Below the pieces are notes generated by a model, which saw only the letters and a list, made by a program, of their open reading frames with translations, did not search any database and was not told where the DNA came from. From the NCBI GenBank assembly GCA_964603585.1, contig CAZRVK010000002.1, positions 243,561-307,560 on the forward strand: 64,000 bases of DNA, given 5' to 3'. The DNA comes from an uncultured Planctomycetales bacterium. GTDB taxonomy: Bacteria; Omnitrophota; Gorgyraeia; Gygaellales; Profunditerraquicolaceae. Position numbers and translations under genes: made by a program. Positions 33,947-59,301 of this stretch are shown piece after piece; positions within the stretch are counted from its first letter, which is position 1; every line of letters begins with the position of its first letter.

Positions 33947-33960
33947 ATCAATTACTTTAT

Positions 33961-34363
33961 TGCCCTGTCGTCTAATCGGTAGGACTTCAGATTCTGCCGT
34001 GAACCAAACAAACCACTTCGTTGTTGGTTCACGGCAGCCATGAACCGAACGAGCAGGCGAAAAAGGCAAAGCGAGTTCTGGTTCATGGCTGGACTACCAA
34101 GCAAGATGTATTTCACATACATTTTATGGAGTAAGCAGAGTAAGAAGTTTTATATTGGATTTACAGCGGACCTGATAAGAAGAGTTGATGAACATAAGAG
34201 AGGATGTGTATATTCTACTCAACGGGTGATTAATCCGGAACTTGTTTTTTACGAAGCGTTTCTTTCGGAAAGCGATGCGAGAAGGCGCGAAGGATATTTT
34301 AAGACAAGCAAGGGAAAGAAGGCGTTGAGAATAATGTTACGGGATACCCTATTTGAATAATTT
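33961..34363 (+). repeat. tandem repeat unit 1: tRNA-Gln 5' half (nt 1-36) + two hairpins + GIY-YIG gene
   Basis: 403-bp unit identical to 34364-34766 by eye, ORFs identical per track. First 36 nt equal positions 1-36 of the downstream intact tRNA-Gln and diverge exactly after anticodon CTG. Confidence 0.85.
34106..34360 (+). CDS. GIY-YIG nuclease-family protein (YhbQ/UPF0213-like), copy 1
   Basis: MYFTYILWSKQSKKFYIGFTADLIRRVDEHKRG...ELVFYEAF...RRREGYFKTSKGKKALRIML: GIY..YIG, Arg and Glu motif order. Start ambiguous; ORF track start is 34040. Confidence 0.7.
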   Translation: MYFTYILWSKQSKKFYIGFTADLIRRVDEHKRGCVYSTQRVINPELVFYEAFLSESDARRREGYFKTSKGKKALRIMLRDTLFE

Positions 34364-34766
34364 TGCCCTGTCGTCTAATCGGTAGGACTTCAGATTCTGC
34401 CGTGAACCAAACAAACCACTTCGTTGTTGGTTCACGGCAGCCATGAACCGAACGAGCAGGCGAAAAAGGCAAAGCGAGTTCTGGTTCATGGCTGGACTAC
34501 CAAGCAAGATGTATTTCACATACATTTTATGGAGTAAGCAGAGTAAGAAGTTTTATATTGGATTTACAGCGGACCTGATAAGAAGAGTTGATGAACATAA
34601 GAGAGGATGTGTATATTCTACTCAACGGGTGATTAATCCGGAACTTGTTTTTTACGAAGCGTTTCTTTCGGAAAGCGATGCGAGAAGGCGCGAAGGATAT
34701 TTTAAGACAAGCAAGGGAAAGAAGGCGTTGAGAATAATGTTACGGGATACCCTATTTGAATAATTT
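34364..34766 (+). repeat. tandem repeat unit 2 (identical copy)
   Basis: Same as unit 1; directly abuts position 1 of the intact tRNA-Gln. Confidence 0.85.
34509..34763 (+). CDS. GIY-YIG nuclease-family protein, copy 2 (identical)
   Basis: Identical protein to copy 1. Confidence 0.7.
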   Translation: MYFTYILWSKQSKKFYIGFTADLIRRVDEHKRGCVYSTQRVINPELVFYEAFLSESDARRREGYFKTSKGKKALRIMLRDTLFE

Positions 34767-36497
34767 TGCCCTGTCGTCTAATCGGTAGGACTTCAGATTC
34801 TGGATCTGACTATCATGGTTCGAGTCCATGCGGGGCAGCCATTGTTGACAACTATCCGAAACTCCGGATAGTGATGCAGTGGGAACAAGCGCCTTACAGT
34901 CTTCTGTAGGGCGCTTTTCCTTTGTAGAGGCTATTTCGCTAGGGAGGATGCCTTCAAGCGGCTCTTCGATATACATATTGATTACCAGCCTGTCGCTATA
35001 GACGTAAATGTCCTTGATCAGGGCATGTATAAGGCTTTTCTGGGCTTCCGGAGGGGCGTCTTCAAGGTGCTGTATGGCAAAGTTCATGCTGCGGTATACG
35101 AGCTCGCCGGAACAGGCGTTTATGCTGGCAACTCTCTTTTGCGCCTGCAGCTTGTCTATTTCGTCTTCCAGTTTTGCAATCTCCATTTCCAACTCATTCA
35201 TTTTGTCTTTATAAGTGGAGCCTTTGGTGACTGTGTTGCCCATGGCTAATTCCAGCAGTTTATTGGCTTGGAAGCGGAAGCCGTTTAGCTTTGTCTCTCT
35301 TTCTTTTAAGTCGGTCTCTATCTTTTCAAGCTTTGCCTGCGACTCAAGCATGGCGTCTCCCAGGGCCTTTATGATAATGCCCTTGTCCTCAGATGCCCGC
35401 CTAAAATAGTCGATTATAGCTTTGTCAAAAGTAGTTGCGGAGATGCGTGTTGCTTTGCATCCCAGAGCCTGCTTGGAGCGGCTGCACTCATAATAAAAAA
35501 ACTTTCTTCTGTCTCTACCGCCTGAAAAATTGCAGACCATATGGCTTCCGCAGTCGCCGCATCGGAGAATACCGGCGAGGAGGTATTCATAGAATCTTTC
35601 TTTCTGCACAAAGTTGTGGCCGGGAAGCTTGGCGCTCAATATTTTGTTGGCCCGCTCCCAGAGCTTCTCATCGACAATCGCCGGGTGATTGCCTTTGTGG
35701 TATTCTCCGCTGTATTGAATATAGCCTTTGTAAAAAGGATTTTTTAATATCCTTGAAATAACCTGCCTGCGCCATTCCTTGCCGTTTAGAGTTTTTAGCC
35801 CGCGCCTGTGAAGCTCAAGGCCTACCTGCGTAAGCGACCGGTTATCCGCGGCCATCTCCCAGATGATTTTAAGATGCGTAGTTATTTTTTCATCAGGAAC
35901 AATTTTATGCGGCTGGCGGCCGTTAGGAAGCGGCTCTCCGTCTGGTATAAGCTTATATCCATAAGGCAGCATCCCGCCGACCCATTTGCCCTGGCGCACT
36001 CTGGCAATAGCGGATGCTTTCACGCGCTCGCCGGTGAGCTCCCGCTCAAAGGCTGACAAAATCCCAAGTATGCCAATTACTACTCTACCTATGGCGGTTG
36101 AGCTGTCCAAGTTTTCTCTTACCGAGACGAAATCGATTTCCTTTTCTCTGAATAGATCAATAAGCCAGTAGAGGTCCCGGGTATTGCGGGTCAAGCGGTC
36201 AAGGCGGAAGAAGATTATTCCGTCAAATGGGGCGGTTTCTCTACGCACGCGGTCGATAATCATCTGGATGCCGGGCCGGTTGAGATCCTTGCCGGAATAT
36301 CCGTCATCGTCTATTCGGCCTTTTTTGCCTATCTTGGCAAGGTCATATCCAAAAGCGTCCAGCAGATTCTTGCAGTGATAGGCCTGGGAATCCAGGGTGG
36401 TAAAATCTCCCTGGGCCTGGTCATCAGTAGAGCAGCGGGTATAGATTACATAGCGTTTTTTGTTATTTGCATTATTTGTTTTGGCATTCATAATCAT
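34752..36497 (-). CDS. large serine recombinase (phage integrase)
   Basis: N-terminal resolvase catalytic domain (YVIYTRCSTDDQ), recombinase domain, zinc ribbon (CGDCGSHMVC...YYECSRS), coiled coil. Likely start MIMNAK at 36497; the track ORF extends to 36620. C-terminal codons overlap tRNA-Gln antisense. Confidence 0.8.
   Translation of the reverse strand: MIMNAKTNNANNKKRYVIYTRCSTDDQAQGDFTTLDSQAYHCKNLLDAFGYDLAKIGKKGRIDDDGYSGKDLNRPGIQMIIDRVRRETAPFDGIIFFRLDRLTRNTRDLYWLIDLFREKEIDFVSVRENLDSSTAIGRVVIGILGILSAFERELTGERVKASAIARVRQGKWVGGMLPYGYKLIPDGEPLPNGRQPHKIVPDEKITTHLKIIWEMAADNRSLTQVGLELHRRGLKTLNGKEWRRQVISRILKNPFYKGYIQYSGEYHKGNHPAIVDEKLWERANKILSAKLPGHNFVQKERFYEYLLAGILRCGDCGSHMVCNFSGGRDRRKFFYYECSRSKQALGCKATRISATTFDKAIIDYFRRASEDKGIIIKALGDAMLESQAKLEKIETDLKERETKLNGFRFQANKLLELAMGNTVTKGSTYKDKMNELEMEIAKLEDEIDKLQAQKRVASINACSGELVYRSMNFAIQHLEDAPPEAQKSLIHALIKDIYVYSDRLVINMYIEEPLEGILPSEIASTKEKRPTEDCKALVPTASLSGVSDSCQQWLPRMDSNHDSQIQNLKSYRLDDRAKLFK
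34767..34841 (+). tRNA. tRNA-Gln(CTG)
   Basis: U1-A72 acceptor TGCCCTG/CGGGGCA, D arm GTCT-AATCGGTAG-GGAC, anticodon stem TCAGA/TCTGA with loop TTCTGGA, T arm CATGG-TTCGAGT-CCATG, then GCCA. Confidence 0.8.
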
Positions 36498-36571
36498 AGA
36501 ATTCCTACCACATTTTAATGCAGGCATACGCCAGGCAGAAGATCTCCTTCTGCCTGGCGGCGCTAAAACAG

Positions 36572-36915
36572 TTATGCCTGGGCCTTCTGCTTTTTGCCTT
36601 TTCCCCAGCCAGCCTTCCATCTGGCCACTGCCCCGGAGACGATCTCGTTGATGCGCTCCTGGGTTGTGCCTTCCTTGAGGATCTCAACAAGCTCTTCTTT
36701 GTTGATTACCCGGAAGTTTTTGATGCCGCGCTCTTTGGCTTTAAGCATCAGCTCATGGCGCGACGACTCTTTGGCGGCTGATTTGCCGGCTTCAGGCTCT
36801 TTTGTAGCTTCTACCGGCGCGCTGGCTTTTTGAGTTTTTGATTTTTTCTTGCCGTAATGCTTGGCGTGGAGCTTGCTCAAAAACTCTCTGTCTTTCTTTT
36901 TCTGCTCAGCAGTCA
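36572..36915 (-). CDS. hypothetical phage protein with Rho_N/SAP-like motif
   Basis: Basic Lys-rich protein; LKAKERGIKNFRVINKEELVEIL resembles Rho N-terminal/SAP motif. AAGGAGG RBS supports a start at 36915. Confidence 0.4.
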
Positions 36916-38463: not shown

Positions 38464-38907
38464 ATGGGCAATGAAAAGATTGATATCAGGGATCTGCGTG
38501 ATGGCAAATTCCTTTGGATAGATAAGGCAGCATTAAGGCTTATCAGCGAAAGCGCTGGTACGATGGGTGTCGCTGTTTATTCCTGGCTTTGTTATTACGC
38601 TAATTTTAAGGCACAGGACTGCTTTCCGTCTATTACTACACTTGCGTATCATTGCGGAGTATCCCGACGCACAATTATGCGCGCTATTAAACAGCTTGAG
38701 CAGTTGAGATCTATTTCTATTGAAAGAAAGAAGGGCAAGCCGAATATTTATAAGCTGCTTAACATGCCCGGGCCGAGAAGTTATCCACAGCCAAGTAGTG
38801 ACACTGATGTCACCGGTGACAGGGCTGTCACTGGAGTGGTGACACCTGTGTCACTAGAAGTAGTGACGCCCTTGTCACCCGAACAAGAGATATTAAACAA
38901 GAGATAA
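38464..38907 (+). CDS. HTH_36-type replication-initiator-like protein
   Basis: Winged HTH (SITTLAYHCGVSRRTIMRAIKQLEQL) resembling DnaD/phage replisome-organiser N-termini; 3' end encodes the VTGDRAVTGVVTPVSLEVVTP iteron array. Confidence 0.5.
   Translation: MGNEKIDIRDLRDGKFLWIDKAALRLISESAGTMGVAVYSWLCYYANFKAQDCFPSITTLAYHCGVSRRTIMRAIKQLEQLRSISIERKKGKPNIYKLLNMPGPRSYPQPSSDTDVTGDRAVTGVVTPVSLEVVTPLSPEQEILNKR
38798..38878. repeat. iteron array: four 16-bp palindromes GTGACA-N4-TGTCAC (candidate phage replication origin)
   Basis: gtgacaCTGAtgtcac (38798-38813), gtgacaGGGCtgtcac (38816-38831), gtgacaCCTGtgtcac (38839-38854), gtgacgCCCTtgtcac (38863-38878). Followed by a GC-rich block (about 38985-39030) and an AT-rich block (about 39060-39165). 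Confidence 0.6.
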
Positions 38908-39171
38908 CTAACAAAAGATAGTAGTAAAGGCTGTGAATTTTGTGAATAACTGTGATTAGTTCTTAAAAGAAAGTCATGGGTCCTTCCATGGGCGGTTTGG
39001 GCGCGGGTCGGGCGAGGCGCGGGGAGGGAGTGATACAAATTTGAAAAAGGGATGTCGTGGTCATTTTAGGGTATTTTTGGGGAGTTTTGGCAGAGGAAGT
39101 TTAGCAAACGATAAGTAATTTAACTTATTACAGATTATTAAGTTATAACAAAAAACGAAAGGAGTTTTTGC

Positions 39172-58563: not shown

Positions 58564-59301
58564 ATGGCACATTTATTACCGCCAAAACAATGCTCGTCAA
58601 ATTTACCCAGTTGGACTGATCCTACGCTTACGGACTTGACCACTGAGATCCGTAAAGTCCACATGGATGAGCTGCGCTCATTTTTAAATAATGAATTTAC
58701 GCGCAGAGGCAAATCTCAGGGCAGTTACACAGACCCTGCGATTACCGCCCTGGTCACTGAAATCCGTAAAGTCCACATGGATGAGCTAAGGTCGGAATTG
58801 TCAGCCTGTAAATCCGGCAGGGGCGAGTCAGGCTACTGCCCGCAGGATAATTCCGGCTGCATGGATTTTACAGACCCGGTAATTACTGCTCTCGTAACAG
58901 AAATTAGAGGAGTGCATTTCCGCCAGGCAAGAAGCAAGGTTGAGGTTTTAATGACCAGCTGCATCTGCGAGACCGAACAGTGCCAGTACTGCGCAGACTG
59001 CGGCTATTACTACCAGACCTGCTCGCATGCAGGCGTAGCCTGCGATAACCATAAATACAACGAATGCATGCATTCTATAAATAATTATTGGATCTGCGCC
59101 AGTATCAATCTGCCCTCGGGGGCAGCGCATCCTTACAAGGCAGCTTCAGGGGATCCGCTTTCAACAACGCCCTGGGACGGCTACGTGCCCTGGGATTGGT
59201 GCGTATATGCTCCGCCCGGGTCTAACTGGGGATCCTGCGAATATCAGGGCGGGCATGACCATACTGCCTGGAACTGCAAATGCAACCCATACACATGGTA
59301 A
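58564..59301 (+). CDS. Cys-rich protein with three tandem about 22-aa repeats (candidate radical-SAM substrate)
   Basis: Repeats TDPTLTDLTTEIRKVHMDELRS / TDPAITALVTEIRKVHMDELRS / TDPVITALVTEIRGVHFRQARS; 17 Cys, 13 of them in the C-terminal about 120 aa, with many Trp/Tyr. Confidence 0.6.
   Translation: MAHLLPPKQCSSNLPSWTDPTLTDLTTEIRKVHMDELRSFLNNEFTRRGKSQGSYTDPAITALVTEIRKVHMDELRSELSACKSGRGESGYCPQDNSGCMDFTDPVITALVTEIRGVHFRQARSKVEVLMTSCICETEQCQYCADCGYYYQTCSHAGVACDNHKYNECMHSINNYWICASINLPSGAAHPYKAASGDPLSTTPWDGYVPWDWCVYAPPGSNWGSCEYQGGHDHTAWNCKCNPYTW

Follow-up and report, generated by a model that had tools for sequence, protein, structure and literature searches.

Layout of the tandem unit at tRNA-Gln

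The stretch of 64 kb from contig CAZRVK010000002.1 that was analyzed here as a whole, hereafter the window, carries directly upstream of a gene for transfer RNA (tRNA)-Gln a 403-bp tandem unit that encodes a small GIY-YIG nuclease and is present in 2.1 copies of 100% identity (Tandem Repeats Finder and repeat search, families D1 and D2). Each unit consists, in this order, of positions 1–36 of tRNA-Gln(CTG), hairpin 1, hairpin 2, a 14-nt leader and an 84-codon open reading frame (ORF) for the GIY-YIG protein. The latter is the only coding content of the unit, which contains neither an integrase nor an HUH (Y1) transposase (TnpA). The two hairpins are jointly referred to as the double hairpin (DH), and L numbers denote homologous or metagenome loci used for comparison. 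The locus comprises the following features:

33960–34802, + strand: tandem array; the last 0.1 unit corresponds to the 5' portion of the intact tRNA
33961–33996, + strand: displaced tRNA-Gln(CTG) 5' fragment, copy 1; tRNA positions 1–36 with the anticodon CTG at the end, identical to 34767–34802
33994–34037, no strand: hairpin 1, copy 1; folds, and the same hairpin type occurs at the homologous position elsewhere
34035–34091, no strand: hairpin 2, copy 1; its last CTG is a duplicate of the anticodon
34106–34360, + strand: GIY-YIG nuclease gene, copy 1; 84 aa, start MYFTYILW, Pfam PF01541 (E = 8.8e-12)
34364–34399, + strand: tRNA-Gln 5' fragment, copy 2 (repeat identity)
34397–34440, no strand: hairpin 1, copy 2 (sequence inspection)
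34438–34494, no strand: hairpin 2, copy 2 (sequence inspection)
34509–34763, + strand: GIY-YIG nuclease gene, copy 2; ATG at 34509 (repeat identity, ORF)
34767–34841, + strand: intact tRNA-Gln(CTG) with encoded CCA (ARAGORN; Rfam RF00005, 57 bits)

The intact tRNA-Gln starts 3 nt past the stop codon of the second GIY-YIG gene, and the identity between it and the copy 1 fragment begins 1 nt ahead of tRNA position +1. Beyond the two array copies, no hairpins of the DH family were found in the 64-kb window.

Two adjacent bulged hairpins are inserted after the anticodon

The preliminary description of this DNA had pointed to two adjacent hairpins at the tRNA anticodon in each unit, and these are real and agree in sequence with what was described. 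Hairpin 1 (33994–34037) has the structure CTGCCGTGAACC-A-AACAA / TTGTT-GGTTCACGGCAG, i.e., 12 bp, a bulged A and 5 bp enclosing a 9-nt loop, while hairpin 2 (34035–34091) is formed by CAGCCATGAACC-GAAC ... GTTC-T-GGTTCATGGCTG, i.e., 12 bp, a bulged T on the 3' arm and 4 bp. With the end triplets split off, the two hairpins read CTG-CCGTGAACC-A-AACAA / TTGTT-GGTTCACGG-CAG and CAG-CCATGAACC-GAAC ... GTTC-T-GGTTCATGG-CTG, respectively. Each stem can reach 12 bp because the central CAG is common to both, and the stem lengths reported earlier are to be amended in this sense. Folding was far better than for shuffled sequence both as RNA (151 nt, 33960–34110; -62.3 kcal/mol, z = -5.4) and as DNA (97 nt, 33994–34090; -30 kcal/mol, z = -7.4), none of 200 shuffles being as good in either case.

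The structure does begin with the anticodon, as had been stated, but this is not the point at which similarity to the tRNA is finally lost. Homology returns after hairpin 2 (CTG-GA), and the hairpin pair is therefore an insertion after the anticodon: the sequence runs CTG, hairpin 1, CAG, hairpin 2, CTG-GA, with a 3-nt direct repeat of the anticodon, and tRNA-derived sequence stops 2–5 nt beyond the hairpin pair. The insertion does not qualify as a tRNA intron (group I or bulge-helix-bulge): no tRNA 3' half follows the hairpins in the window units, no intron family was matched in Rfam at E ≤ 1, and ARAGORN calls the intact gene only. Besides the tRNA, Rfam returned nothing but noise (mir-4451 at 20.8 bits).

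It had also been proposed that the hairpins form a terminator insulating the tRNA half; as terminators or insulators, they would stop read-through out of the truncated tRNA. Strong GC-rich stems just past the tRNA fragment are in line with such a role, as is the finding that in those related loci where the tRNA precedes the GIY-YIG gene the hairpins come straight after the tRNA 3' end. On the other hand, the sequences following the two hairpins, CAGCCATG and CTGGACTACC, contain no T-run, the terminator scan made no call at either hairpin, the gene behind the hairpins would be left without a promoter, and neither the relation between spacer and flanks nor the DH insertions within tRNA bodies described below would be explained. 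We regard intrinsic termination as very improbable.

The GIY-YIG protein is a bare catalytic domain

The ORF encodes a GIY-YIG domain (Pfam PF01541, E = 8.8e-12) of 84 aa and nothing else. Its start, MYFTYILW, was placed from an alignment of 22 homologues; the deposited protein of 91 aa begins at an ATG at 34085 that lies within the stem of hairpin 2, whereas the alignment favors the ATG at 34106, 14 nt after the DH. In the 91-aa numbering, Y12, Y23, G25, R33, H37 and E57 are invariant across the 22 aligned homologues. Throughout the GIY-YIG superfamily, the conserved residues Tyr, Tyr-x-Gly, Arg, His and Glu mark an active enzyme, and all of them are present. An AlphaFold2 model with a predicted local distance difference test (pLDDT) score of 88.5 has the beta-beta-alpha-beta-alpha fold expected of GIY-YIG proteins. 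Sequence matches in the PDB were 1ywl and 1zg2 (UPF0213), and Foldseek placed 1zg2 first, followed by the Slx1 entries 7cq3, 4xlg and 6seh, with UvrC and I-TevI ranking lower. Sequence and model comparisons thus assign the nuclease to the Slx1/UPF0213 (YhbQ-like) branch, Slx1 being a nuclease of branched DNA. Unlike homing endonucleases of the SegB/I-TevI type, the protein has no C-terminal DNA-binding domain and consists of the catalytic domain only; SegB comprises ~220 aa including a DNA-binding domain. No match was obtained in PADLOC and PHROGs scans of the nuclease, and among NCBIfam models there was only a sub-threshold match (TIGR01453 with 19.5 bits, far under the 56-bit cut-off).

Within each GIY-YIG ORF, hexamers resembling a sigma-70 promoter (TTGATG-18 nt-TATATT; 34185–34214 and 34588–34617) match the consensus; on the basis of this match only, they could drive the downstream tRNA or the next unit.

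Double hairpin, nuclease gene and tRNA segments recur as one unit

Relatives were collected from one genome per species, which yielded at least 584, and 80 loci from Omnitrophota, Patescibacteria, Planctomycetota and others were examined, with counts made over non-redundant loci. The layout seen in the window, i.e., tRNA positions 1 to ~36, hairpin 1, anticodon complement, hairpin 2, anticodon, GIY-YIG gene and full tRNA, is also present in L001, L002, L007–L009, L019, L028, L031, L040 and L066, although the GIY-YIG proteins of these loci are merely 51–66% identical to that of the window. Protein identity is 66% for L001, while L002 stems from an Omnitrophica genome in which the locus is syntenic with gltX; in both of them and in others, a tRNA-Gln 5' fragment and a full tRNA-Gln enclose the DH and the GIY-YIG gene.

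A tRNA on the same strand adjoins the GIY-YIG gene in 63/82 loci (Omnitrophota, Patescibacteria, Planctomycetota). Among these 63, the gene is followed by a tRNA within 120 nt in 37 loci and preceded by one within 450 nt in 29, both arrangements occurring at once in three. The adjoining tRNAs are those for Gln (CTG or TTG), Asn, Glu, Met, Leu, Ser and others, and both tRNA identity and arrangement are kept within GIY-YIG clades. A CC..GG hairpin with 9-bp arms lies within 200 nt upstream of the gene in 69/80 loci compared to 32/531 controls, and a DH in the strict sense was present in 32/80 loci and in 0/531 controls. The distance from the end of the DH to the start codon has a median of 19 nt, with leaders of 14–30 nt. 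The expectation that the hairpins are conserved at homologous loci and linked to the GIY-YIG gene was thus borne out across the loci compared. No HUH or DDE transposase was found next to the homologous loci.

The DH, a bare GIY-YIG gene and tRNA-derived segments therefore constitute one recurrent unit that interrupts tRNA genes in several bacterial phyla about which little is known. Upstream of the cassette lies a dead piece of tRNA ending at the DH and downstream a complete tRNA, so that the host keeps a working gene.

Many of the homologous loci lie at contig ends (L005, L007, L010, L011, L029, L060, L078 and others) or contain runs of N directly at the cassette (L002, L056, L064), as is to be expected if short-read assemblies are broken by tandem units. 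The true copy number in the organism from which the window stems may be above two.

Arm pairing is conserved, and mismatches suggest opposite strands for the two hairpins

The arms of the hairpins follow the consensus CCNTGAACC / GGTTCANGG, and all four Watson-Crick pairs are encountered at N (arm position 3), with compensatory changes at further arm positions. Loop lengths vary from 4 to 54 nt, from which it follows that it is pairing that is conserved and not spacing in duplex DNA; judging from these substitutions, the DH structure is under selection. Hairpin 1 usually has a bulged A on the 5' side after the 9-bp arm and hairpin 2 a bulged T on the 3' side. These bulges mirror each other, which identifies hairpins 1 and 2 as inverted copies of one type. 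The arm variants GAACC, GCACC and GAAGT follow GIY-YIG clades, GAAGT/ACTTC arms being found in the clade of L079, L048, L039, L076, L072 and L074.

When read on the sense strand, mismatches in hairpin 1 are A.C in 17 and G.T in 5 cases, while those in hairpin 2 are G.T in 15 and A.C in 5 cases (Fisher p = 0.0016, uncorrected for shared ancestry). An A.C mismatch read on one strand is G.T when read on its complement, which suggests use of the bottom strand for hairpin 1 and of the top strand for hairpin 2. Such a strand asymmetry argues for a role at the level of DNA over a purely sense-RNA role. A contrast between the loop motifs CTTCG (hairpin 1) and CGAAG (hairpin 2) was too weak to use.

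These data bear directly on the possibility that the DH is a structured 5' leader of a GIY-YIG mRNA transcribed from the tRNA promoter, where it could serve as a processing site (e.g., for RNase III), protect the 5' end or throttle translation of a toxic nuclease. The DH is always located on the sense side of the gene, at a median of 19 nt ahead of the ATG, it folds strongly as RNA, hairpin 2 tolerates mismatches of the G.U type on the sense strand, and no separate promoter-like site of the sigma-70 type was detected in the interval from the tRNA fragment to the gene. However, the sense-strand mismatches of hairpin 1 are mainly A.C and would be unpaired in a sense RNA, and no Rfam family was matched. 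In addition, a role as leader leaves unexplained the duplicated target triplet, the DHs inside dead tRNA remnants downstream of the live tRNA and the DH doublets located far from any GIY-YIG gene. Taken together, we consider an RNA function unlikely.

The spacer between the hairpins is complementary to both flanks

In 15/23 distinct DHs with 3-nt spacers and in 8/12 distinct DHs with 2-nt spacers, the spacer that separates the hairpins reads as the reverse complement of both DH flanks. Seven flank/spacer pairs were seen, i.e., CTG/CAG, TTG/CAA, CAG/CTG, TAA/TTA, CA/TG, TG/CA and the palindromic CG and TA. Accordingly, loci at tRNA-Gln(TTG) have CAA and not CAG after hairpin 1, and in the one genome represented by both L043 and L058, with cassettes at tRNA-Glu and tRNA-Leu, the spacers differ and each fits its own site. 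In interrupted tRNA copies, DHs are positioned in the D arm, the anticodon stem, the anticodon loop, the T stem-loop or at the 3' CCA, and in several cases the flanks of the DH are contiguous in tRNA coordinates. In L079, taking out one hairpin and one copy of a 4-nt repeat restores a tRNA-Gln that is detected by ARAGORN. Removal of the DH in silico from downstream pseudo-tRNAs did not restore a full tRNA, because those copies are also truncated.

In L015 (1870–1990) and L036 (1890–1995), the two hairpins occupy different places in one tRNA fragment, with hairpin 1 following tRNA position 12 in the D arm and hairpin 2 located at the anticodon. The two hairpins are thus separable, and each may insert alone.

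Two other origins of the junction were considered and rejected. The 3' arm of hairpin 1 (GGTTCACGGCAG-CCA) is not a decayed tRNA 3' end, since the triplet following hairpin 1 tracks the complement of the flank (CAA, TG, CG, TTA) and not a discriminator and acceptor end. Microhomology-primed copying on the spacer, by which loops would be inverted with each copy, was dismissed because loop orientation is maintained among related DHs that lie at different sites (L064, L011, L022).

The spacer complementary to both flanks is what would be expected if the DH were a recognition structure for recombination or a nuclease, as the preliminary description had put forward, and the likeness to elements of the insertion sequence (IS) family IS200/IS605 drawn there is apt. 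Membership in that family is another matter: no HUH transposase is present, both hairpins lie on one side of the gene, they are inverted with respect to each other and would fold on opposite strands, and the target duplication amounts to 2–3 nt. We infer that the GIY-YIG protein binds or cuts the hairpins of the DH.

Gene-less double hairpins and the role of the neighboring nuclease

Short-loop DHs of the same arm family (CCATGAACCACGTAGGGTTCATGG-CAG-CCCTGAACC...), with neither a GIY-YIG gene nor a tRNA in several kb of surrounding sequence, were noted in the metagenome contigs L087, L088, L092, L093, L096, L100, L101 and L102, with L101 containing two clusters 8.8 kb apart. They look like dispersed copies of a repetitive extragenic palindromic (REP) sequence.

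The DH could accordingly be an independent palindromic repeat resembling REP/REPIN sequences or a MITE (a miniature transposable element with inverted repeats), moved by another enzyme or by replication slippage and favoring tRNA-like DNA, with the GIY-YIG protein as a mere neighbor, be it a free-standing homing nuclease on the tRNA gene or a host enzyme related to tRNA. Such independence would fit the dispersed doublets without GIY-YIG gene or tRNA in metagenome contigs, including the two clusters of L101, and the occurrence of hairpins 1 and 2 singly at different tRNA positions in L015, L036 and L079. In addition, SegB provides an example of a GIY-YIG enzyme that recognizes tRNA genes without hairpins, and the fusion of an Slx1-like domain of prokaryotes with a TrmH-like tRNA methyltransferase has been described (PMC1564403). 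A mere neighborhood is, however, difficult to reconcile with a hairpin directly upstream at a nearly fixed distance in 69/80 GIY-YIG genes vs. 6% of controls, with arm variants that track GIY-YIG clades, with a 403-bp unit that encodes the GIY-YIG protein alone, and with the absence of HUH or DDE transposases beside the homologous loci. We therefore assign only a minor probability to an independent repeat.

Signs of recombination within tRNA genes

The dead 5' fragment matches the live tRNA without a single difference over 33–42 nt in 14/14 comparisons. In the 11 comparisons in which native flank precedes the fragment, upstream identity extends over only 0–7 nt, so that the shared segment begins at about tRNA position +1; in the remaining three, another cassette unit precedes. 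As the tRNA sequences differ between genomes, identity of the fragment must be kept by recurrent recombination or re-insertion, and recent common descent alone does not appear to be enough.

Tandem units also occur in L002 (with an assembly gap) and L066. Downstream of the live tRNA, a CC..GG hairpin is present in 17/36 loci and a tRNA 3' remnant in 9/36, and by inspection about a dozen of the downstream hairpins are true second DHs. In L023 (1870–2340) and L079 (1716–2290), the disrupted and the intact tRNA-Gln represent different alleles with 83% and 76% identity, respectively, while in L024 (1872–2339) both are identical up to position 42 and diverge beyond. These mosaics fit exchange inside the tRNA, with a cassette that would travel with its tRNA-derived arms and sometimes with a whole tRNA.

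A second island borders the same tRNA-Gln on its 3' side. It starts right after the tRNA CCA, and a near-identical junction exists in L009 and L015, which shows that a second, independent island uses tRNA-Gln. A large serine recombinase of 622 aa is encoded directly 3' of the tRNA (34752–36620, - strand; junction 34842); it has Resolvase, Recombinase and Zn-ribbon domains and matches phrog_95 integrase, and its ORF runs through a terminator-like hairpin (34887–34916) and the whole tRNA. Short tandem palindromic repeats with periods of 24 and 14 in the early region of the island and a 66-nt direct repeat (82% identical, 114 nt apart) were noted at 38826–38920 and 58608–58787.

The proximity of this recombinase raises the question of whether the hairpins are attachment (att)-type sites of a site-specific recombinase, be it an integron-like integrase or the large serine integrase next to the tRNA, for which the GIY-YIG ORFs would represent cassettes. 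Apart from the 622-aa enzyme immediately 3' of the tRNA, tandem small ORFs each with an imperfect bulged palindrome do superficially resemble integron cassettes with attC. Yet most homologous DH-GIY-YIG loci have no recombinase nearby, the island of the serine recombinase has its start behind the tRNA CCA and is encountered again, independently, in L009 and L015, and the arms CCNTGAACC / GGTTCANGG, as judged by inspection, depart from RYYYAAC / GTTRRRY, the attC R''/R' consensus. The neighboring recombinase is a serine enzyme and not IntI, for which the rest of the window was not screened. The earlier suggestion of an integrase arm site finds no support either, as the unit contains no integrase and the nearby serine recombinase belongs to a separate island that is missing from most homologous loci. 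We give att-type sites hardly any credence.

A proposed nick-and-recombine mechanism

The reading that we favor, with moderate confidence, is that the DH is the cis-acting DNA structure of a selfish cassette with an Slx1/UPF0213-like nuclease, which invades and restores tRNA genes by a nick-and-recombine mechanism. A structure-specific nuclease would recognize both bulged hairpins in the form of folded DNA, with hairpin 2 on the top and hairpin 1 on the bottom strand, and would nick the feet of the hairpins where the spacer pairs with the flanking triplet, the spacer acting as a guide or overlap sequence. The breaks would be repaired by host homologous recombination between tRNA-derived segments. 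Such repair would place copies of the cassette in tRNA genes, prevent the fragment from diverging from the live gene and yield tandem arrays like the two identical units of the window.

A further-reaching version, which we advance only tentatively and hold to be a good deal more doubtful, is a novel class of structure-guided mobile elements that would be the GIY-YIG counterpart of REPIN-RAYT and IS200/IS605 systems. In such a class, the hairpins would be read as folded opposite single strands, base pairing of the spacer would set the entry site in the tRNA gene, and the cassette would break the resident tRNA gene and supply a replacement copy, which would make it hard to lose.

Several observations weigh against the nick-and-recombine cassette. 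With regard to the enzyme, the nuclease of 84 aa is without an obvious DNA-binding module, no relatives of it were found on viral contigs, and GIY-YIG enzymes hydrolyze DNA, so that rejoining must fall to host repair. As for mobility, a scan of metagenome contigs for an empty site, i.e., the upstream flank joined to an uninterrupted tRNA-Gln, returned none, no polymorphic allele was found for this organism, and the cassette occupies the syntenic tRNA-Gln locus in divergent Omnitrophota, a position that may suit long vertical persistence equally as well as mobility. Concerning the DH itself, 10/52 distinct DHs, among them those at the tRNA CCA end, have no spacer, the fixed short distance between DH and ATG suits a role as 5' untranslated region or leader RNA equally, and a downstream second DH is absent from the window, though present in about one third of related loci. 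DH doublets of the same arm family without a GIY-YIG gene or tRNA within kilobases in metagenome contigs imply that the hairpins can exist without a nearby nuclease gene. Finally, shared ancestry was left uncorrected in the mismatch and association statistics.

Relation to known systems

SegB of phage T4, a free-standing GIY-YIG homing endonuclease of the kind found in tRNA gene clusters of T-even phages, cuts tRNA genes; it recognizes the T-loop motif GGTTCRANTCC, prefers to cut after CCAR and generates 2-nt 3' overhangs (PMC2330249). A further study describes tandem amplification of tRNA segments driven by SegB (PMC13096335). The cassette resembles this system in the location of a GIY-YIG nuclease gene among or beside tRNA genes, in the motif, given that GGTTCA is part of the DH arms and that the tRNA CCA is where many DHs start, and in the amplification, to which the tandem units in the window array are comparable. 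Neither a double hairpin nor a spacer rule or a displaced tRNA fragment is described in the consulted parts of the SegB papers. Unlike phage-borne SegB, the nuclease is a bare catalytic domain of 84 aa from the Slx1/UPF0213 branch, and it is chromosomal in Omnitrophota, Patescibacteria (candidate phyla radiation, CPR) and Planctomycetota, with no viral relatives found.

Recognition in IS608 is guide-like, in that the hairpin foot carries a short stretch complementary to the flanking cleavage or target bases. The DHs resemble IS200/IS605 elements such as IS608 and their hairpin-only derivatives in having imperfect hairpins with an extrahelical base at the element boundary and a short foot sequence complementary to the flank, here a plain Watson-Crick complement of 2–3 nt. 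They differ in lacking an HUH (Y1) transposase and in that the hairpins abut on one side of the gene (5'). Moreover, IS200/IS605 elements carry subterminal hairpins on the same strand at both ends and cause no duplication, whereas folding on opposite strands and a target duplication of 2–3 nt are seen here. With REP/REPIN-RAYT systems the cassette has in common that imperfect palindromes form an inverted doublet, that they flank a nuclease gene present in single copy, that some copies are dispersed and carry no gene, and that persistence within lineages is long. It departs from them by a GIY-YIG enzyme instead of a Y1 HUH transposase, by the lack of a GTAG or CGTC tag, and by elements that interrupt tRNA genes, the copies in the window being confined to the tRNA locus. 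Since enzyme class and layout differ from both IS200/IS605 and REPINs, membership in either fails.

Fungal mitochondria harbor small mobile double-hairpin elements that co-occur with GIY-YIG ORFs, and endonuclease ORFs that insert there supply a substitute for part of the target gene while pushing the native piece aside. Unlike the bacterial cassettes, those elements are organellar, unrelated in sequence and directed at protein-coding targets, and we know of no demonstrated link between double hairpin and nuclease and of no spacer-flank rule among them. As with integrase-driven tRNA islands, a partial tRNA duplication flanks the insert and a functional tRNA is regenerated. Such islands encode an integrase of the tyrosine or serine type, and it is usually the 3' part of the tRNA that they duplicate. 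In the 403-bp unit no integrase is encoded, the duplicated part is the 5' one, starting at position +1, and the double hairpin forms the junction.

Full-text literature searches returned no account of bacterial tRNA genes that harbor a small GIY-YIG gene together with a double hairpin, and a survey of the GIY-YIG superfamily from 2006 mentions only the prokaryotic Slx1-like domain fused to a TrmH-like tRNA methyltransferase (PMC1564403). The DH-GIY-YIG cassette has therefore apparently not been described so far. It extends known kinds, i.e., free-standing nuclease cassettes at tRNA genes and hairpin-bounded mini-elements, with a real chance that its mechanism is new.

If the favored reading is correct, the cassette would represent a selfish element of very small size that is widespread among phyla whose genomes are tiny (at least 584 relatives in species-representative genomes) and would show how an essential tRNA gene can be invaded and yet not be lost. 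It would also account for the pseudo-tRNA debris and the breaks in assembly that recur at tRNA loci of these metagenome-assembled genomes. A concrete, testable substrate for stand-alone Slx1-like GIY-YIG nucleases would be at hand in the form of a pair of bulged hairpins whose spacer is complementary to the target, and a nuclease whose site is set by a 2–3-nt spacer between hairpins would be of interest to tool developers. Should the structure-guided version hold as well, it would provide a first function for the widespread bacterial UPF0213/YhbQ-like proteins.

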